From NCBI GenBank assembly GCA_963666735.1, contig OY762926.1, positions 3,648,001 through 3,712,000 on the forward strand: DNA of 64,000 nt, in the 5' to 3' direction. The translations under genes were made by a program, and so were the position numbers. The stretch is from Gemmatimonadota bacterium (GTDB taxonomy: Bacteria; Gemmatimonadota; Gemmatimonadetes; Palauibacterales; Palauibacteraceae). The notes under the pieces were generated by a model. That model searched no databases. It was not told the DNA's origin and saw nothing but the letters and a program-made list of their open reading frames with translations. Shown here one piece after another: positions 12,690 to 63,398 of the stretch (its first letter is position 1; each line of letters starts with the position of its first letter).

Positions 12690-13229
12690 TCATCTGTGCC
12701 TCTTGTAGAGGAACCACCCGCCGACACCGATGCCGCCGGATACGACAACGTACGGCACGCAACGGCCTCCCAACCCATCGCTGGCGCAGGTAGCGCTGCC
12801 GTACAGGAAGTTGAGCCCCCCCACTACCATCATGCCGAGGCCTACGTACTTGAGCACAGGATCCTTCTCCTCCTGCTCCTGTCGGAAGTCCGCGAAGGCG
12901 CGCTGGAACGATGGTCGGCCCGGCAACGAAGTCGTCAGGGTCGGGCCGGCGGGGGTGGCACGCGAGGCGTTCAAGTCGGTCGTCGGATTCGATGGACGGA
13001 AGCGGCTCTGCGAACTAGAGAATCTCGGTGCCACCGCAACATTCCCGCTCCGCAGCGTGCTTGCAGGACTGCGGCTGAATGTGACGACGTGGGGAACCAG
13101 GAGCGCTCGGGCCGCGAGGGCGCGTGAGGCCTCTCCGGCGCCCGAGGACGGAACCGTCTGGGCGTCTGCGGGCACGGCCTCGAGCGCCGCCCCGACCATG
13201 AGGAGCCTGATGATGGTTCGGATTGGCAT
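12690..13229 (-). CDS. Hypothetical secreted/membrane protein
   Basis: AAGGAG upstream of ATG 13229; signal-like N-terminus ending ADAQ; two C-terminal hydrophobic segments. Confidence 0.6.
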   Translation of the reverse strand: MPIRTIIRLLMVGAALEAVPADAQTVPSSGAGEASRALAARALLVPHVVTFSRSPASTLRSGNVAVAPRFSSSQSRFRPSNPTTDLNASRATPAGPTLTTSLPGRPSFQRAFADFRQEQEEKDPVLKYVGLGMMVVGGLNFLYGSATCASDGLGGRCVPYVVVSGGIGVGGWFLYKRHR

Positions 13230-13499
13230 TACTTTTCTCCTTATGGCTGTTGGGAAACCAGGGACAGTCGACTGAACCGTCGAACCGCAGCCCTTGGGTG
13301 GGCACCTCTCCGACGAAAAAGAGCACGGCTTGCGTCGGCGAGGGGGCGAACAGGCGGAGCGTGCCAGCTGTAGGGCGACGAGGAGGAGGGGAGAAACGGG
13401 GGCGGCAGCGCCGAAAACGCGCGTCAGGCTCGGCTCGAGCTTGGAGTTGCCCCGCTTTGACGGACACCTATCCATTGGGGTCAAGCAAGGAGGTGTTCC

Positions 13500-13814
13500 A
13501 TGGCGGGCCGGAAGGGGCGGTATCCATCCGAGTACAGGGAGCGGCTGGTGGAACTGGTGAGGGGCGGGCGTAGTGCCGCGTCACTCGCCCGGAAGTTCGA
13601 GCCGTCGGAGCAGACGATCCGGAACTGGGTCCGGCAGGCGGATGTGGACGAGGGGTTCCGTAGCGACGGGCTGACAACGGAGGCGCGCAGCGAGTTGCGG
13701 CGCCTGGAGCGGGAGAACAAGCGGCTCAGGATGGAGCGCGACATCCTAAAAAAAGCCGCGGCCTGGTTCGCGAGGGAGAGCGGATCGATCCCCGGCGGGG
13801 GTATGCGTTCATGA
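13500..13814 (+). CDS. IS3 OrfA (HTH)
   Basis: RYPSEYRERLVELV...SEQTIRNWVRQ...ERDILKKAAAWFA; A7G slippery site at 13748-13755 for -1 frameshift. Confidence 0.92.
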   Translation: MAGRKGRYPSEYRERLVELVRGGRSAASLARKFEPSEQTIRNWVRQADVDEGFRSDGLTTEARSELRRLERENKRLRMERDILKKAAAWFARESGSIPGGGMRS

Positions 13815-14659
13815 GGGCGCACCGGGCCGAGTTCCCGCTTCGGGCCATGTGCCGGGTGCTGGGTCTCTCCCCCAGCGGCTACTACGACTGGTTGAGGCGT
13901 CCTCCCTCGGACCGCGCGCGTCGGGACGCGGAACTGGAGGCCCGGATCGCGAAGATATGGACCGGCAGCGGCGAGACGTACGGCCGTCCGCGGATCCACG
14001 CGGCGCTCAGGGCCGAGGGCGAGCGGGTGGGGCAGAAGCGCGTGGGGCGGCTGATGAGGGGGCTGGAGATCGAGGGCGCGACCAGGCGGCGCTTCAAGAC
14101 GGCGACGACGAAGAGGGATACCGAGGCCCGCCCCGCGCCGGACCTGGTGGACCGTGACTTCTCGGCCTCGGGGCCCGACGAGCTGTGGGTGGCCGACATC
14201 ACCTACGTCCCCACGTGGGCTGGCTGGCTGTATCTGGCCGTCGTGCTCGACGTCTGGAGCCGCCGCGTCGTCGGCTGGGCCATGGCGACGCACATGCGGA
14301 CCGAGCTCGTCGAGACCGCGCTGGCGATGGCTCTCGCAAGGCGTCGTCCCGAGGGTCGTGTCGTGCATCATTCCGACAGGGGCTCGCAGTACACCTCGCT
14401 CGCCTTCGGGGAGCGCTGCCGCGAGTCGGGCATCGCCCAGTCCATGGGCTCGGCGGGCGATGCGTACGACAACGCCATGTGCGAGAGCTTCTTCGCCACC
14501 CTCGAGTGCGAGCTGATCTGGAAGCGCTCGTTCCGCACGGCGGATGAGGCGCGACGGGAGGTCTTCGGCTTCATCGAGGGCTTCTACAACACCCGGCGGC
14601 TGCACTCGGCACTCGGCTACGAGTCGCCGGCCGACTACGAGAGCAACCATGCGGCCTGA
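13811..14659 (+). CDS. IS3 OrfB (rve integrase domain)
   Basis: WVADITY, HHSDRGSQY, DNAMCESFF, YNTRRLHSALGY. Confidence 0.93.
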   Translation: MRAHRAEFPLRAMCRVLGLSPSGYYDWLRRPPSDRARRDAELEARIAKIWTGSGETYGRPRIHAALRAEGERVGQKRVGRLMRGLEIEGATRRRFKTATTKRDTEARPAPDLVDRDFSASGPDELWVADITYVPTWAGWLYLAVVLDVWSRRVVGWAMATHMRTELVETALAMALARRRPEGRVVHHSDRGSQYTSLAFGERCRESGIAQSMGSAGDAYDNAMCESFFATLECELIWKRSFRTADEARREVFGFIEGFYNTRRLHSALGYESPADYESNHAA

Positions 14660-14778
14660 GGCGCACCCGCGGCGCGCACCGACATCCTCTCCCGAGCGCC
14701 TGAGGGAGGCTGAAAGGAGAAGAACCGGAGGCGATCAACCACAGAAACTAACCGTCCGTGAAAGCGGGACAGCTCCAA

Positions 14779-14823
14779 GCTTAACGATGGGACCGAACGG
14801 AACGACATCGTGTCAACACCCTG
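14779..14823 (-). promoter_or_regulatory. Conserved leader motif copy A (CAGGG-nn-TTGACACGATG-N15-CCATCGTTAAGC), cut off from its GAGCC repeat by IS3
   Basis: Direct match to 59714-59759; two repeat units GGCTCGGCTC lie on the other side of the IS at 13427-13436. Confidence 0.65.
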
Positions 14824-55148: not shown

Positions 55149-55560
55149 GAGGTCGGGTCAATAGGTGTGTAAACGTCCTCAGGCGGCGACCCCTTGCCGA
55201 CCTTCCGGGACCGGATTTCCGTCCTCGAATCTTCTTCCCTCGCACACATCCCGCAGCAGTTCCGGGGCGTTGAGCTTCCCGAACCGCTTTTGGGCCACGA
55301 TCAAGAGCCGCCAGATGAGCGCGGTGGCGTTGTCGACCCGCTTGAACCGTTTCGCCGCGGTCGTGCGCAGCCGGACCGAGGCGAACGGGCTCTCCACCAC
55401 GTTGGTTGTCCGCAAGTGCGCCAGTGCTGCTCGGGGAAGGCGTGGAAGGCCGTCATGCGGTCCCAGTCTCCTCGAGCACCTCCACCGCCTTCCGGTGGGC
55501 GTCCCCGTAGCGGCCGGCGAACGCCTTGCGCGCCTCCTTCGCCGCCGCCCGCGATGTCTC
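55149..55560 (-). mobile_element. IS256-family 3' relic with right end
   Basis: DWDRMTAFHAFPEQHW / HLRTTNVVESPFASVRLRT with two frameshifts; end-like GTCAATAGGTGTGTAAA. Confidence 0.8.
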
Positions 55561-55669
55561 TCCGCCCGGAGCGTCCGCCTCGTGACCACCGTACGACCCC
55601 GAGCCACCCTCCCTCGATGTGCGCCATTTTCGATGCCCACAAGTGGGACATTTCCGATGCCCCTTGACA
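55561..55669 (-). mobile_element. IS21-family left end without transposase
   Basis: TGTCAA end followed by tandem GGGCATCG(G/A)AAATG boxes, typical of IS21 multi-repeat ends. Confidence 0.65.
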
Positions 55670-55670
55670 G

Positions 55671-55692
55671 CCGGGGGGCGTCTGCCCCCCGG
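55671..55692. terminator. Perfect 9-bp GC hairpin (terminator- or REP-like)
   Basis: CCGGGGGGC-GTCT-GCCCCCCGG, TTTCTT a few nt downstream. Confidence 0.4.
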
Positions 55693-55761
55693 GCCGGGTT
55701 TCTTCGGGACAACTACCTATTGCGGGGGGAGGGGAGAGAAGAGGGGAGCGAGGGGGTGCTC

Positions 55762-56566: not shown

Positions 56567-59473
56567 CTACCATCCGGGTGGCAGCCATTCCTCGTGCCCG
56601 AAGCCGCGGATGGTCGCCGCAGCGGACTCTGAGAGCGGATACTCCCAGTGCCGGAAGAAGCTGACCAGGTCGCGCTGGACGATGGCGCTGAACCGGATCG
56701 CGAACCCGTCGAGTTCGCCGCCGAAGATCGAGCGCGGATAGGCCGGGTCGTAGTAGCTGTGGAAGACCCGCTTCATCGGGTTCCAGCCGAACCGGTCGAT
56801 GAGCTGGCGGTACAGAAAGAGCCGCTCGCAGGCGCCTGCGACGGACCACCGCAGGGTGGCAATCGCGGCATGGTCCACCGGGGCGGCGCAACCGTGAGTC
56901 CTCTGCTCGGTGTAGACATTGAAGTCGTCGCCGCCGTAAATGTAGTAGTTCAGCGTGTACATCGTGAAAAGGTTCACACCGACCTCGGTGATTCCGTTTC
57001 CTCTCCAGTCCTCGGTCTGCCATTGGTGACCGAGTTCGTGGCCGAAGAGCCACCAGTCCACGCCGTGCGCCCAAGGGGAGTAAACTTCGGGTGGTGGGCG
57101 TACAAACGGCCTTGGGCCCTCGCTCGTTAGCGTGGCCAACCACGCCCGGCCCTCCGCCGTGCCCGGCACGAGTGCCCAGTGTTCCCCGTGAAGCGGGTAG
57201 TTGATGGTCAGCCAGCCCGCGTTGGCGTAGCCATAGCCGACCTGCGGATCGAAGATCCAGACGCTCTCGTACGCGCGGGGAACGGGCTCGCCGGCAAGCT
57301 CCGCGTGGTGCCGCCGGAATCCGTCCCAGAACGCCGAGACTTCACCCGGATCGTCGATACCGCGCGCGGACTCGGCCGAGATCACGAACCGGATACCGCC
57401 GGGCTTCTGGATGATGGCCTGCGGGGCTCCGGCGTCAAGATCCGCTAACCATCCGGCCGCGTTCGACTCGCCGGCCGTGTACACGGCCATGGGAATAGCC
57501 CCCTCGACCGTGACCGGGATCGTCCCCCGGTAGGACTCCGGGATGACGAGGGAGATTGAGCCGCCGTAAGCGTTCGTGACCTCAGTCTCCGCCATCGTAA
57601 CACTGAAGGTGCGACGCAAAGCTGGCGCCCGGCGCCATACGGCGTGCTCGGGGATCCGCCGCAGGTCATTGTGTTCCTGACCCACCGTGATCGCCAGCTC
57701 GCCGGTCGCGTGCGACGAGGGAACCGAAATGGTGACGAGACCGCCGGGCGGCGCATAGAACTCCAGCGGAAAATGACGTTCGCGCCGGCGGGCGCCCGCC
57801 GGGAACTCGCCCCCTGTGGCGTCCACGACCACGGACCCGTCCTCGCGGCGGGCGGCGGGGACGGGAAGGCCGGGAAAGGCCGCCGCCCAGGGATGCGCCG
57901 CAGGCCACTCGTATGCACCAAGACTACTCGCCACGGCGACCGCAAGACGAGCCTCCGGAGCGTCTGCGGAGACCGGCAAGGGCGGCGTCTCCCGCGCAAG
58001 ACGGGCGAGGGCAAAGTCCAATTCCTCGGTACGACCAAGCTCGAGGGCAGCGTTGAAGAGGTGAGGCAGAAGCGCCGCCTGGAACGCGTCGAGTGACCCG
58101 CCTCCGATGTACTCACCCCATACGACATGCGGCATCAGGCGCAAGTCAAAGCTTGTGGTGGCGGACGCAATCTCCTCGATCGAGTCCTCGTTCCACGAGA
58201 TGCCGGTGTCGCGTAGGAGAGCGTCCGCCGTCAGCGGACCGTGGTGTTGCTCGATCCACCAGCTCCAGTGGAGTGCGGAGGCGGCGACGACCAGCCCGCC
58301 TCCGCGCTCGACGAAGGCCCGGAGCGGCCCAACGGATGCCTCGACCAAGTGGGCCGTGCCCCAATGGTTGGCCAGAACCACGGCGACATCCGCGTCGGCC
58401 AGCGCGCTGGCGCTCCAGTCGCGGACGTACGGCCCCCGACCATCGACCACGTCGACCCCATCGATCCCCTGCGCCTCGAGCGCGTCGGCGACCCTCCGGT
58501 TGTCCACGAGCACGCGAAGTGAGGCGTTCTTCGCGCCAGTCCAGCGCACGGCGTTGGCCAGGAGGCGGGCCGCACTGGCGTTGCCGAGGAGCGTCGCCCG
58601 ATTTCCTGGGGACAGGAAGTCTTGCCCGGGGAACGCGACCACCCTGCCCGCCCCCAGCCGCGACGCGGCCACGAGCACGGACGGCATGTCGCCCTCGCTG
58701 ACAATCACCGGAAACGCGTCGGGATTTAGCCCCAACCGCAGCGTGCCGACCGTTTCGGTGGAGCCCTCGGTCCCCCCCACCGTCGTGGTAACGAACGGAC
58801 GTTCCGGCAGTCCCGCCGTCAGCACCGCGTGGTGATTCGAGGGATCGTCCGAAAACACGGAGACTCGGGACGAGTCCGCCAGTGTCTCCGACGCTGCGGT
58901 GATCGTCGCCGCGCCCACCGCCTCGGCGCGCACTAGCCCCGAGTCGTCCACCATCGCGATTGTCGCGTCGCTCGACCGCCACTCGAAAGCGGCGTCCGAA
59001 ACCTCGCTGCCCAGTGCATCGAGCGCCGTCGCTGACAGTCGCGTCGTGTCCCCCACTGGCAACGCCAGCGAGCTTGGCGACACGCGGATCGCTGCTACGG
59101 CTTGCTCTACAACGATCCGCGCGGTGCCCGACACGGAGCCAGCCGTTGCCGTGATCGTCACCGTCCCGTCACCCGTTGCCGTTACCAGTCCGGACGCGGC
59201 GACCGTCGCCATCGAAGCATCGCTTGACGACCAGGCCAGCGCCGTTCCCGTCATCACGTTCCCGTTCTGGTCACGCACTTCCACCGAGAGTTGCACGGTC
59301 GCTCCCAGGGCGGTCAGCTCGGCGATTGCCGGGCTGACCGTGACCGTGGTGGGACGGGCGGGTTCGGGAGGCGGTGGCGGTGGGGGGTCCGTGGTCCCGT
59401 CCCCGCAGGCAGACGACAACGCGAGAGCCGCAAGAACGGCGGAGAGCCGGACCACGGCTCCGCGACCGCTCAT
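56567..59473 (-). CDS. M60-like (enhancin/mucinase) metallopeptidase lipoprotein with two Big_2 Ig domains
   Basis: LSSA-C lipobox; WSSSD..VA.V..SGLV repeats; YAPPG; GHELGHQWQ...ITEVGVNLF gluzincin motif. Confidence 0.88.
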   Translation of the reverse strand: MSGRGAVVRLSAVLAALALSSACGDGTTDPPPPPPPEPARPTTVTVSPAIAELTALGATVQLSVEVRDQNGNVMTGTALAWSSSDASMATVAASGLVTATGDGTVTITATAGSVSGTARIVVEQAVAAIRVSPSSLALPVGDTTRLSATALDALGSEVSDAAFEWRSSDATIAMVDDSGLVRAEAVGAATITAASETLADSSRVSVFSDDPSNHHAVLTAGLPERPFVTTTVGGTEGSTETVGTLRLGLNPDAFPVIVSEGDMPSVLVAASRLGAGRVVAFPGQDFLSPGNRATLLGNASAARLLANAVRWTGAKNASLRVLVDNRRVADALEAQGIDGVDVVDGRGPYVRDWSASALADADVAVVLANHWGTAHLVEASVGPLRAFVERGGGLVVAASALHWSWWIEQHHGPLTADALLRDTGISWNEDSIEEIASATTSFDLRLMPHVVWGEYIGGGSLDAFQAALLPHLFNAALELGRTEELDFALARLARETPPLPVSADAPEARLAVAVASSLGAYEWPAAHPWAAAFPGLPVPAARREDGSVVVDATGGEFPAGARRRERHFPLEFYAPPGGLVTISVPSSHATGELAITVGQEHNDLRRIPEHAVWRRAPALRRTFSVTMAETEVTNAYGGSISLVIPESYRGTIPVTVEGAIPMAVYTAGESNAAGWLADLDAGAPQAIIQKPGGIRFVISAESARGIDDPGEVSAFWDGFRRHHAELAGEPVPRAYESVWIFDPQVGYGYANAGWLTINYPLHGEHWALVPGTAEGRAWLATLTSEGPRPFVRPPPEVYSPWAHGVDWWLFGHELGHQWQTEDWRGNGITEVGVNLFTMYTLNYYIYGGDDFNVYTEQRTHGCAAPVDHAAIATLRWSVAGACERLFLYRQLIDRFGWNPMKRVFHSYYDPAYPRSIFGGELDGFAIRFSAIVQRDLVSFFRHWEYPLSESAAATIRGFGHEEWLPPGW

Positions 59474-59497
59474 GGTCCCGGCGGCGATCCTGCCAAG

Positions 59498-59715
59498 TCG
59501 GGCTCGGGCTCGGGCTCGGCTCGGCTCGGCTCGGCTCGGCTCGGCTCGGCTCGGCTCGGCTCGGCTCGGCTCGGCTCGGCTCGGCTCGGCTCGGCTCGGC
59601 TCGGCTCGGCTCGGCTCGGCTCGGCTCGGCTCGGCTCGGCTCGGCTCGGCTCGGCTCGGCTCGGCTCGGCTCGGCTCGGCTCGGCTCGGCTCGGCTCGGC
59701 TCGGCTCGGCTCGGC
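59498..59715. repeat. Microsatellite (TCGGGC)3(TCGGC)40
   Basis: Counted directly: hexamers 59498-59515, 40 perfect pentamers 59516-59715. Confidence 0.97.
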
Positions 59716-59759
59716 TTAACGGTGGGGTAAAGCCATGTCTTCATCGTGTCAATCCCCTG
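59714..59759 (-). promoter_or_regulatory. Conserved leader motif copy B (CAGGG-nn-TTGACACGATG-N16-CCACCGTTAAGC) abutting the microsatellite
   Basis: Matches 14779-14823; contains ATG at 59744. Confidence 0.65.
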
Positions 59760-59999
59760 CGGGTGGGCCTGGGGCGGGTGCCGGGAGGTCGCCCGCTGGG
59801 CTGGGAAGATAAGCTGCAATGCCGCGTCGCGGCCAGAAGAAATCGAGTTCTGGCAGGTAGCCCATTCCGCGTCCGAGAACCCCTATCGGCTTGGCCCGGA
59901 ATCTCGCTCTCGCCCTCGCGGCGGGCGTCATCTCCCCTCCGGCAGTTGGAGACAATCACCGGCTCGGCCCGGAGTCGCGATCCGGCCCGCGCGGCCTCG

Positions 60000-61105
60000 C
60001 CTTTTCGAACAGCCGCCTCGTGATCTCCACCCGCTCCCTGGCCCTGCGCCGTAGATGCCAGAGTATCCGGTCAAATCGGTCACCCGCCCGCTCAGCCGCT
60101 CGACTTGCCGCTGCAAGGCTTCGACCTGCTCGCGCAACGCTTCGATTTGTCCGGATTGCCGCCGCTGTTACGTTTCGTACTGCGTGGAGAATCTTTCCAA
60201 GGCGGCTGTCAGCCGCCGTTCCAAGTCGGTCACGCAACTCCTTCCCACGCTCTCGACAGCTTCAAGTAGGGCCGTCCGTCCATCGTGAAGGCGGGACGGC
60301 CCGGCGTGCCGGCGGGCAGCGCCACGTTGCGCTCCCCGTGGATCTCGATCAACTCGGTGCCCCAGGTCGTCTCGTGCATCGCCGCTAAGGTGTCGCGCGC
60401 CCGCACGGTCCGGACGTTCACCTCTGCCAGGGTTTCGATCCGGGAGTCGATGCTCCTCGACAACCAGTGCGTCGTCGCCCAACTGCCGCCGCAGATACCG
60501 AGGAATAAGCTCATGCCGACCACCAGCGGTCCGGAGCCAGGACTTCATCAGCAACTCGCGCATGCGCCCGGTCGCCTCGACCGTATCGGCCTCGATGGAA
60601 CGCAGCGCGCCGGCTTGCGACGGCGCTCAAGTTCTCGCCAAGCCGCGCGAGCTCTCGCGCGGCTGTCTCCTCGATCCGCTTCCTGTCGGCCTCCAGCCTG
60701 CTCCTCAGCCGGGAGGTCAAGTCGTTCGGGCTCGAAGTCTCGTTCATACAGTTCTCCCTTCAGGCGCCACCGCTTCCCGCTGCCGGGATCGCGGGCGGTG
60801 ACGTAGTCCTTGCCCTGGCGGGGCACCTCCAGGCCAACGTCCTCCAGCGCGGAGACCACGTCGGCGCGGCCCTTGACCGGGCCGTGCTCTACGCGTTGCA
60901 CCGGGTAGTCGCGGATCAGCGTGCGCGGGTCGGCTTCGTGTTCCAGCCCGGCCCGCAGCTTCGAGGCCTCGATGTAGGCCACGTGGCCCGGCCGCTGCGT
61001 CCTGGCCCGCTCCGGGTCGTCGGGACGGCTCCAGCCGTGCTCGTGGTTGAAGGCGTCGCGCAGCGGGTCGAACGTCCGCTGCCAGCCGGGCGGTGCGTTG
61101 TTCAT
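60000..61105 (-). pseudogene. Decayed ColE1-type mobilisation module (relaxase mid/C-part, MbeB-like, MbeD/MobD-like)
   Basis: APPGWQRTFDPLRDAFN..GWSRPDDP...VPRQGKDYVT...RLKGELY; overlapping frameshifted small ORF; VTDLERRLTAALE with internal stop; catalytic N-terminus absent. Confidence 0.7.
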
Positions 61106-61386
61106 TCATCGCTCTGCTGCTCCTCGTTCTCCTCGCCCGTGACGAAGACCTGCGGCCCCGCGCGGGCGGGGGCGGAGCACCGGGCGCCGCCCCCGTCCAG
61201 CCCGAAGGCGGCGATGTACGCCAGAATCCGATCCACCGTCCTCAGCGTCGGCGAGCGTCCGCGGGCGAGCTCGCGCATCAGGTGCGGGTCGCCCACCGCC
61301 CTCAGGCCGAACGTCGTCGGACTGATGCCCGTGCTTTCGAGGAACGCATTCACCCGTGACTTGAACTGCTGCGCCCACGCGTCCAT
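61102..61386 (-). CDS. Small Cro-like HTH protein of phage/ICE type
   Basis: VNAFLESTGISPTTFGLRAVGDPHLMRELARGRSPTLRTVDRI. Confidence 0.7.
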   Translation of the reverse strand: MDAWAQQFKSRVNAFLESTGISPTTFGLRAVGDPHLMRELARGRSPTLRTVDRILAYIAAFGLDGGGARCSAPARAGPQVFVTGEENEEQQSDE

Positions 61387-61777
61387 GCCAGTAACGTTGA
61401 AGGCTGAAAAACAGGAACGTCAACCAATGGGAAATCTCCCAAGTGCCTGTAAAGGCTATAGATAGACAGTAGGACAAGCAGCCTGGCCGCTGGCTCCGCC
61501 AGTGGCGCGGAAAACACCCCCCTTGCGGGTGGGAACCGGGGCTCAAACGGTGGAGCCGGGATGCTTGGTCGGACGACCGTTCCGGCGGGCAGGCGATGCC
61601 GCCGGGATGGTCCGAATGGAGGACCGGACGAGACGGGTACTTCGCTCGGGGCTGGGGTTCGCGCGCGCGACCGGGGTCGACTTGGCCGGGTGGACCCCGC
61701 CCGTGGTCGCTCGTCCACGACGCACGCTTATATTGTGGGTTGACCGAATTCGACTTGCGATGGAGAACGCGGACGCG

Positions 61778-62374
61778 ATGAACAGCCTGCCTGAGCGGAT
61801 CATGGAGTACGCCGAGGCCAAGCCGGAGGCCACGCCGATCCGGGCGGACGACCTCCTGCACCTTGGCGATCGCGCCGCGGTGGCCCGGTCGCTATCCCGC
61901 CTCGTGCGCTTCGAGCGGCTCCTGCGAATCTGCCGTGGCGTCTACATGCGCCCGATCCAGACCCGCTTCGGCCTTCGGGCGCCGCGTCTGGAAAAAGCGC
62001 TTGCTTCCCTTTCGGCGCTCTGGGGCGAGATCATCGTTCCGAACGGCGGTGGCGCGGCCAACTGGCTCGGGCTGACAACGCAGAACACCGTGCGCTCGGT
62101 CTATCTCACCTCCGGTCCCGACCGCCTTCTGCATTTCGGGGCTCACCGGGTGGAGTTGCATCACGCCCCGGCGTGGCAATTGACAGCGCCGCATCGGACC
62201 GCCGGCGTGGTCATTCGCGCGCTGGCGTGGCTCGGCCCCGACGAGGTCGAGAAGAGCCTCGATGCCGTGATTCCGCAGCTCACCGGGGAGGACTTGAGCG
62301 ATCTCGCCGCCGCCCGGGACGTCGTGCCTGCGTGGATGGCGGAGCCGCTGAACAGACGGCTCGTGCATGGCTGA
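61778..62374 (+). CDS. AbiEi-like (DUF6088) type IV antitoxin
   Basis: LLHLGDRAAV.RSLSRL..RICRGVY, AANWLGLTTQ, YLTSG; alternative start 61760. Confidence 0.82.
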   Translation: MNSLPERIMEYAEAKPEATPIRADDLLHLGDRAAVARSLSRLVRFERLLRICRGVYMRPIQTRFGLRAPRLEKALASLSALWGEIIVPNGGGAANWLGLTTQNTVRSVYLTSGPDRLLHFGAHRVELHHAPAWQLTAPHRTAGVVIRALAWLGPDEVEKSLDAVIPQLTGEDLSDLAAARDVVPAWMAEPLNRRLVHG

Positions 62375-63398
62375 AATCCGGTTTCAGCGCCTCTCGGCGA
62401 TCGAGAAGCGAGACGCCTTGGATGTTGCGGCGCGGCGGCGAGGACAGGAGACCTTTCTGCTGGAGAAGGACGCTTGGATCGTGGCAACGCTCGGCGTGCT
62501 GTTCGAGGCACCGTTCGGACGACACCTCGTGTTCAAGGGCGGCACGTCGCTTTCCAAGGTGTGGCGGGCGATCCGCCGGTTTTCCGAGGACATCGACATC
62601 ACCTACGACATTCGCGGCTTCGCCCCCGATCTCGTCGTGGGCGGTGACGAGGAGGCGCTGCCGCCCACGCGCAGCCAGGAGAGGCGCTGGACGCGGGCGA
62701 TCCGACCGCGCCTCGCCGACTGGGTGCGCGACACCGCCGGCCCGCTCGTACGGCAAGAGCTCGGACGCGCCGGATTCCCGGCGCGGGTACGGGCGGAGGC
62801 CGAGCGGCTCTACATCGGCTACGAACCGTTGTTCGAGCCGCGCGGCATCGTGAGGCCGGAGGTCCAAGTGGACTTTGGTGCGCGCTCCACGGGAGAGCCG
62901 CACGCCGTTCATCCGGTGGTGTGCGATGCCGCCGCCCACCTTCCCGGCGTCGCGTTTCCGGAAGCGCTACCGGCCGTCATGCTGGCCGAGCGCACGTTCT
63001 GGGAGAAGGCGACCTCGATGCATGTCTACTGCCTCCAGGGGCGCGTTCGGGGCGAGCGATGGTCGAGGCACTGGCACGACCTCGTCCGCCTTGACGACGC
63101 CGGAATCGCGGAACGGGCTCTGGCGGACCGCGAACTCGCGCTGTCCGTCGCCCGCCACAAGGCGATGTTCTTCCGCGAGAACGATTCAAACCGCCAGCGG
63201 ATCGACTACCACGCAACGGTCTCGGGAAACCTCAGGATCGTTCCCTCTGGAGCCGCCCAAGAGGCGCTTGCCGCCGACTACGCCAGCATGCTCTCCACGG
63301 GGATGTTGCTGGACGTGGACGAACCGTTTGGCACGGTCATGGAGCGGTGCGCCGTGATCGAGGCGAGGGCCAACGCTCCCCGGACGACGGGCCGATAG
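62367..63398 (+). CDS. AbiEii/AbiGii nucleotidyltransferase toxin
   Basis: LEKDAW, VFKGGTSLSK..IRRFSEDID, ERTFWEKAT, SRHWHDL. Confidence 0.9.
   Translation: MAEIRFQRLSAIEKRDALDVAARRRGQETFLLEKDAWIVATLGVLFEAPFGRHLVFKGGTSLSKVWRAIRRFSEDIDITYDIRGFAPDLVVGGDEEALPPTRSQERRWTRAIRPRLADWVRDTAGPLVRQELGRAGFPARVRAEAERLYIGYEPLFEPRGIVRPEVQVDFGARSTGEPHAVHPVVCDAAAHLPGVAFPEALPAVMLAERTFWEKATSMHVYCLQGRVRGERWSRHWHDLVRLDDAGIAERALADRELALSVARHKAMFFRENDSNRQRIDYHATVSGNLRIVPSGAAQEALAADYASMLSTGMLLDVDEPFGTVMERCAVIEARANAPRTTGR

Follow-up and report, generated by a model that had tools for sequence, protein, structure and literature searches.

The window analysed here is a stretch of 64,000 nucleotides (nt) from a Gemmatimonadota bacterium (GenBank assembly GCA_963666735.1, contig OY762926.1, positions 3,648,001 to 3,712,000). 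It contains on its minus strand a gene for a lipoprotein with M60 peptidase domains, presumably a mucin protease of the cell surface, which is preceded by a long perfect GAGCC repeat and, in front of this repeat, by a short leader with its own start codon and Shine-Dalgarno (SD)-like sequence (Table 1). A first-pass annotation had read this arrangement as a candidate frame-selecting switch. The read runs that contain the stretch are labelled as sponge metagenome or as coded organisms.

Table 1. Features of the M60 locus and of the second leader copy at 14.8 kb (positions in the window)
Feature	Position	Strand	Remark
Putative P1 -10 box, TATCTT	59806..59811	-	Presumed promoter function
SD-like AGGGGA	59753..59758	-	Duplex energy -6.6 for ATG 59744 vs -3.6 for ATG 59473; -9.6 in orthologue L178
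TTGACA, putative sigma70 -35-like core of the cassette	59747..59752	-	Recurs at a similar distance from the tract in most leaders
Leader, likely start ATG 59744 and codons MKTWLYPTVK	59713..59744	-	Read from the sequence
(GAGCC)40, perfect pentamer tract	59513..59712	-	Encodes SRAEP in all frames
Hexamer tail and linker	59474..59512	-	Open in the M60 frame only (open runs of 981, 13 and 79 codons)
ATGA, second in-frame ATG	59470..59473	-	Weak SD; one off-frame terminates on it
Lipoprotein gene, presumably gated	56567..59473	-	968 amino acids; two Big_2, M60-like_N, Peptidase_M60; lipobox-type signal
Stop codon of the leader frame at the sequenced 40 units	59271..59273	-
Second leader: TTGACA 14816, ATG 14808, CATCGTTAAG	14778..14816	-	Separated from its tract
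IS3-family element, 1336 nt	13442..14777	+	Between second leader and tract; 4-nt duplication AGCT on both sides; HTH_Tnp_1, rve
Two-unit GAGCC remnant	13427..13437	-	13-35 units in orthologues without IS3
Small secreted-protein gene, presumably once gated by the second cassette	12690..13229	-	Own SD; linker no longer joined in frame

After ATG 59744 the minus strand reads CACCGTTAAGCC up to the tract, and the leader contains a TAC at 17-nt spacing (59729) as well as CACCGTTAAG (59724-59715). The distance from ATG 59744 to ATG 59473 is 271 nt (1 modulo 3), and the leader frame, MKTWLYPTVKP(SRAEP)n, passes ATG 59473 and terminates at 59271. With 38, 41 or 44 units the leader would be fused in frame to the M60 lipoprotein, and with 39 or 42 units its frame would stop at the TGA that overlaps ATG 59473. 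The start, the 40 units, the distance, the frame end and the absence of stops from a pentamer that reads SRAEP in every frame had all been given in the first-pass annotation and are confirmed, as is the restoration of the frame by 38 or 41 units. Only its three hexamers behind the 40 pentamers have to be corrected to two complete hexamers and a partial third, or else the tract has to be counted as 39 pentamers and three hexamers, the total length being the same. A scan of the 3,977,883-nt genome for perfect repeats of at least 24 nt (units of 1-12 nt, at least three copies) yielded 19 arrays, of which the GAGCC tract has 40 copies and all others three to four. Since it is the only array above four copies, the tract is not a product of chance.

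Reading frame and unit number across GAGCC cassettes

Species genomes were scanned for (GAGCC)6, which returned at least 120 loci, and 20 genomes, chosen for promoter-like flanks or sponge-type names, were then searched for all tracts. After removal of three records (two split pieces, one hexamer context) the survey set comprised 91 tracts of 4-67 units from 31 genomes or bins; 18 of the tracts were without a flank, leaving 73 complete loci. By record title the set falls into six groups, namely Gemmatimonadota, Acidobacteriota, Pseudomonadota, Nitrospirales, Poribacteria and Entotheonella. We take the surveyed taxa and bin names to be sponge-associated. About 19 tracts are located in a Candidatus Multivorans genome (Acidobacteriota, G146) and 10 in a Candidatus Rariloculaceae genome (Gammaproteobacteria). 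The proteins encoded behind the tracts mostly carry Big, LRR, fn3, Calx-beta, cadherin or PKD domains, whereby 20 of the 62 scanned had no Pfam match. The module is thus reusable, as had been proposed, because it recurs in 31 genomes or bins of six phyla. Its description as a cassette for surface lipoproteins fits the M60 locus but is too narrow as a limit, since other secreted proteins in six phyla are also served.

In 65 of the 73 complete loci a frame is open from the end of the tract for 200 codons or to the end of the available DNA, and 62 of these 65 frames run into a hydrophobic stretch (median distance from the tract 37.5 codons). The off-frames terminate ahead of this hydrophobic region (h-region) in 96 of 124 cases. 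When the same filter was applied to both sets, 60 of 71 cassette tracts showed an open frame into a signal-like hydrophobic stretch, compared to 3 of 49 other GAGCC tracts (63/71 and 19/49 for an open frame alone). Between tract and signal h-region, 19 of the 62 loci contain no ATG, GTG or TTG and 37 contain no ATG; L031, L035 and L284 are examples. For the upstream side, the start with the best SD within 150 nt was picked regardless of frame. From this start the frame runs without interruption into the tract in 54 of 59 cases, compared to 28 of 118 for the other two frames, and in 21 of 25 when only the first-listed locus of each genome is counted. In 39 of 43 loci no downstream SD is as strong as that of the leader (medians -8.7 for the leader and -3.8 for the best downstream SD). 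Among 48 loci, 14 are in frame and 20 and 14 are out of frame in the two other registers, a spread that is expected under free switching but not for a constitutive gene.

The unit number differs between near-identical flanks. In genome G154 a 7.2-kb block is present in three copies, which are 99.71-99.97% identical outside their tracts of 22, 18 and 22 and of 17, 21 and 18 units, respectively. Loci L438 and L442 are 99.93% identical and have 25 and 30 units, and the M60-locus orthologues from two metagenome assemblies, L178 and L185, share the leader-tract junction of the window and have 14 and 15 units between flanks of 100% identity. Loss of mismatch repair was rejected as the cause, as two MutS-domain genes are present (the search was limited to MutS); 5-nt loops escape mismatch repair.

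On the basis of these sequence comparisons we propose, with a probability of roughly 70%, that the element is a translational frameshift phase-variation cassette similar to that of the opa genes of Neisseria, and that it is OFF as sequenced. The frame-selecting role suggested at first is borne out by comparison, namely by the lack of a later start in 19 of 62 loci, the 54 of 59 open SD starts and the length differences between near-identical flanks. An upstream promoter would give rise to an mRNA with its main start at the SD-preceded ATG 59744, from which the ribosome would read the short leader, the stop-free hydrophilic SRAEP spacer and then the lipoprotein signal, in the order in which they are encoded. 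Slipped-strand mispairing, as known from other simple sequence repeat (SSR) loci, would add or remove 5-nt units and shift the frame; the variation in length as such was seen between near-identical copies. One frame in three would yield a fused precursor (ON), whereas at the 40 sequenced units ribosomes would pass ATG 59473 and stop at 59271 (OFF).

A number of points weigh against this interpretation. The choice of genomes was not blind, because they were selected after their flanks had been viewed, and the loci are not independent of each other (paralogues, shared descent). No long open frame is present in 8 of the 73 loci, while 43 of the 62 have some ATG, GTG or TTG after the tract, 9 of these 43 with an SD of -6 or lower, and at the M60 locus itself the in-frame ATG 59473 is retained together with a complete signal. 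Among control tracts, 13 of 20 likewise have an open start with a strong SD. The ON product would carry about 90 extra N-terminal residues before its signal; export of such a product is an assumption. The TTGACA core faces the tract, and a transcript starting from it would lack the SD-ATG. The overlap of stop and start is not enriched when ATG and GTG are pooled (23/46 loci vs 583/1243). With regard to the tract lengths, the three copies in G154 may be haplotypes, and the short-read unit counts of L178 and L185 may be collapsed. Finally, contigs of X1, X2 and X4 (three runs from three studies, one of them possibly the source of the window) end on reaching the repeat from either side, without any contig bridging it, and those of X9 cover only part of the flanks.

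Alternatively, the tract could be a neutral microsatellite or an assembly artefact beside a mobile-element remnant, with which the missing bridge would agree. The tract does adjoin relaxase-like remnants, and the 74% identical M60 orthologue of G013 works or worked without a cassette. However, the same leader-tract junction is present in two other metagenome assemblies, the contigs of the three runs do reach both repeat edges (with the same reservation about the source of the window), the architecture is fixed over 31 genomes or bins, and the genome has no other long SSR. This explanation is therefore very improbable and can be regarded as largely refuted already.

TTGACA core, linker and a possible third state

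Of 40 non-redundant leaders, 28 have TTGACA (at most one mismatch) at a distance of 28-46 nt ahead of the tract. The motif occurs in 1-5 of the 40 in each of five windows further upstream, and 6 of 75 other tracts have it. Its position is fixed to the tract; the ATG floats 11-110 nt upstream. A -10-like box follows in 19 of 40 leaders (2-11/40 in background windows), whereby the spacers are mostly 18-25 nt long and range from 15 to 31 nt. This is not the spacing of a sigma70 -10 element with T-7 at 16-18 nt, as a spacer of 18 nt occurs in 2 of 28 leaders, none has 16 or 17 nt and the rest have 15 or 19-31 nt. Of 22 leaders from Gemmatimonadota, 16 have a TAC hexamer at a distance of 17 nt from TTGAC, in no case with a T at the sixth position (T-7). 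Further upstream, 11 of the 22 Gemmatimonadota leaders listed have TATCTT 41-70 nt before TTGAC, and 3 more have another TAxxxT hexamer at this place.

It might be that TTGACA is a true promoter, that transcription starts from the tract and translation from 59473, and that the unit number acts like a dial in the 5' untranslated region (5'-UTR), tuning the amount of mRNA or protein without an effect on the frame. The occurrence of TTGACA and of -10-like boxes just before the tract agrees with this, as do the many loci with an ATG or GTG a few codons past the tract and the cassette-free orthologue of G013 (L482:1460-1710), which has a leaderless layout with TACAAT 7 nt before the ATG and, in addition, an early internal TGA. 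However, 17 of the 19 loci without a start after the tract still keep the TTGACA core, and the spacers are mostly 18-25 nt long, or the 17-nt hexamer is without T-7. Such a dial would have no need for an open SD-ATG leader or for a linker that is open in one frame, and a separate P1-like box lies upstream. We thus consider it unlikely. Since the transcript of the core would lack the SD-ATG and the core is kept where no later start exists, it probably does not serve expression. As a tentative guess, the core may recruit sigma70-RNA polymerase to the 5' edge of the tract and influence the tract or elongation, through more slippage or through pausing, rather than gene expression.

Three other explanations for the core or the repeat were rejected. 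A conserved hairpin is not a general feature (mean fold z -0.20 over 64 cores, 16/64 below -1). An integron core site (GTTRRRY in the leader) was dropped because most leader families are without this motif, whereby no integrase search was made. An array of GAGNN sites of the class bound by the trp RNA-binding attenuation protein (TRAP) does not fit, as PF02081 (TrpBP) was not found in the 94% complete genome G000 and the downstream gene encodes an M60 protein and not a trp function.

Since the leader frame would terminate at the M60 ATG with 39 or 42 units, three states of the switch may exist. Ribosomes in this third frame may reinitiate at 59473 and give an intermediate state, a possibility that we take seriously without favouring it. 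In 13 of 46 loci the first stop of the +1 frame overlaps an in-frame ATG, compared to 52 of 1243 in gene bodies. G006 and L455 lack a frame that could give the fusion; in each of them, one of the frames terminates at the downstream start or shortly ahead of it. The linker is richer in C than the gene body in 45 of 52 cases, which would be consistent with Rho polarity; Rho may end OFF-state transcripts at these linkers.

The same features could be accounted for by leader-peptide coupling or attenuation only. ATG 59744 would then be used, but the functional protein would always start from 59473, the frame would decide between reinitiation at ATGA and exposure of the C-rich stretch to Rho, and the fusion would not be a working form. 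Apart from the C-rich linkers, the overlaps (at the M60 locus and in the 13 loci) and the missing fusion frame in G006 and L455, this would agree with the 14.8-kb gene, which in orthologues has its own strong SD about 115 codons past the tract. It cannot apply to 19 of the 62 loci, because there is no downstream start, and the fusion frame is kept open at the M60 locus both in the window and in L178. As the overlap is also not enriched once GTG is counted, we regard coupling as the sole mechanism as quite improbable and retain the frame-selecting cassette as the preferred interpretation.

Distribution of the cassette and neighbouring elements

Within the genus, (GAGCC) tracts of at least four units were found in 6 of 36 genomes, with seven tracts in total. 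The exact form of the leader motif did not extend to relatives, as it occurs in one of the 36 genomes, the window's own. In looser forms the motif does recur, since all six genus tracts with upstream sequence have TTGACA 36-44 nt before the tract, in front of different genes. The signals of L031 (cytochrome c peroxidase lipoprotein) and L035 (Big_2/LRR lipoprotein) come without a separate ATG. A phylum scan gave matches in 9 of 401 genomes, from two families only, and none in the two largest families searched, which account for 259 genomes. An order-wide motif search with two mismatches mostly led to chance matches, with none of four examined candidates being a cassette, and a metagenome scan with the leader pattern returned at least 119 loci, whereby among the matches listed two were true cassettes and the rest chance. 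On L178 (1-60, minus strand) a second, divergent cassette with a GTG start and 11 or more units at the contig end lies 1.5 kb from the M60 orthologue, and G154 likewise contains divergent cassette pairs.

Between phyla, the linkers are similar to each other over 146 nt for Poribacteria and a gammaproteobacterium (81.5%), over 125 nt for Poribacteria and Nitrospirales (78%) and over 133 nt for Rariloculaceae and Multivorans (74%). The leaders, in contrast, have almost no cross-phylum matches. The GAGCC tracts of Saccharibacillus and most of those from actinobacteria lack the architecture and were ruled out as cassettes. In Saccharibacillus (L229, L245, L255, L259) a (GAGCC)13-17 tract forms the end of an intergenic repeat element that contains TAACGGAT/ATCCGTTA motifs; this different context resembles repetitive extragenic palindromes (REP). 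In gut Bacillota and Collinsella (L244, L247, L261, L262, L270, L288) the repeat has the reverse sense: an SD-TTGAC-ATG leader is followed by (GGCTC)n and, some 260 nt further on, by the gene of a large secreted protein that has a start codon of its own; a promoter-like element with a 17-nt spacer on the opposite strand faces the tract, and a hairpin with a U-run precedes the gene. From their sequence, these loci look like an attenuator variant with convergent promoters. Two non-sponge loci, L282:2470-3570 (Thiobaca trueperi) and L260:2460-3231 (Chromatiales), have a TTGAC-ATG leader and (GAGCC)8-10 in frame with a secreted protein; the next open reading frame (ORF) of L282 resembles a four-helix Avd-type protein. 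L238 has a compound tract with (GAACC)7 immediately before (GAGCC)13.

The recurrence of the leader at 14.8 kb was confirmed as a single further copy, which is split from its tract by the IS3 insertion sequence (IS); no third copy was found in the window's genome. In orthologues without IS3 the linker is open into the gene for 295-302 codons in 4 of 5 cases, whereas the frame of the window copy is lost. A second IS-disabled cassette may be present in L032:6600-8400 (G014), where the cassette is followed by an apparent transposase ORF in the linker. Upstream of the M60 cassette, the region 59830-62400 is a fragmented mobilisation region with relaxase-like matches (74% over about 100 nt) to small plasmids and very deep coverage in the read runs; Pfam gave no match in its mobilisation-like ORFs. 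An AbiEi/AbiEii pair at 61502-63398 lies beside it. A degenerate IS256-like transposase fragment was recognised by eye at 55179-55712, without a Pfam match. Outside the window, three segments containing GTTGACAC (G000:C1:3573187, 3574074 and 3574961) are spaced by 887 nt and appear to be a tandem triplication.

Comparison with known systems and biological meaning

The M60 locus shares several features with known contingency loci. It has a long perfect SSR with a unit that is not a multiple of three, and the unit number varies between the same flanks, with all frames seen. The position of the tract in the coding frame after the start follows from comparison only; a second ATG exists at this locus. 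The presumably gated gene encodes a surface-exposed or secreted protein (lipobox-type signal, Big_2 and M60 here, adhesin-type domains elsewhere).

The cassette works like Neisseria opa but is not the opa repeat, since the unit is GAGCC and not CTCTT, lies upstream of the signal and precedes unrelated genes. GAGCC encodes a hydrophilic SRAEP spacer ahead of the signal, whereas the opa repeat forms the core of the signal itself. The cassette also differs in tracts of up to 67 units, unrelated gated families, a promoter-like core and an occurrence in six phyla of non-pathogens. In opa, (CTCTT)n lies in the coding sequence of the leader peptide; in both systems genes for surface proteins have a pentamer SSR behind their start codon, and the unit number makes or breaks the frame. 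Both also have multiple copies in one genome, which switch independently in opa and would do so here, where G146 has up to about 19 (PMC3745409).

In hmw1A of Haemophilus influenzae, an (ATCTTTC)n repeat lies in the 5'-UTR, and its change in number requires transcription (PMC12721329). Like this repeat, the cassette would place an SSR at the 5' end of an adhesin transcript, and hmw1A gives a precedent for a promoter that acts on the switching rate. The hmw1A repeat is an untranslated rheostat that needs a hairpin and RNase III, whereas the cassette tract would lie in a translated frame and its core has no general hairpin. A rheostat of this type, with a start downstream of the tract, does not fit 19 of the 62 loci; at the M60 locus it would be possible. 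Sigma70 can bind -10-like elements in transcribed regions and pause elongation (PMC4604602), and the cassette core would likewise lie inside the presumed P1 transcript. In contrast to these pause elements, the better-conserved part of the cassette core is a -35-like hexamer. MerR-type promoters with long spacers are a further system for comparison. Like these, the proteobacterial, Poribacteria and Nitrospirales leaders have near-consensus -35 and -10 elements with a 19-21-nt spacer, some of them palindromic (L256, L416), but palindromes are not general in the cassettes, and their spacers range more widely. A description of the GAGCC cassette was not found in the literature covered, which was without subscription journals and bioRxiv supplements.

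In its widest form, the proposal would be that of a horizontally shared plug-in module of the sponge microbiome, which in at least six phyla places SD-ATG, a sigma70-like core and (GAGCC)n before eukaryote-like adhesins. The core would act as a mutator that stalls RNA polymerase at the first units or sends it there, setting and perhaps regulating the switching rate of three states (fusion, reinitiation and off). Taken as a whole, we consider this proposal rather doubtful.

SSR phase variation has been studied mostly in human pathogens, and surface proteins with Ig-like, LRR, fn3, cadherin and Calx-beta domains are thought to mediate recognition between sponges and their symbionts. If the frame-selecting cassette operates as proposed, SSR switching would control such recognition-type surface proteins, and combinatorial surface variation would arise from the module that sponge-type symbionts of six phyla carry ahead of many secreted, adhesin-like proteins. 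With about 19 switches per genome very many surface combinations are possible, which would offer the symbionts a testable route to persistence in their hosts or movement from one host to another, and to phage evasion. The use of one repeat unit across phyla points to community-wide sharing or to a common constraint. Short-read assemblies break at genes with this cassette, whose annotated starts are likely to be wrong. With the conserved promoter-like core, it would become directly testable whether bacteria have coupled transcription to the rate at which they mutate.

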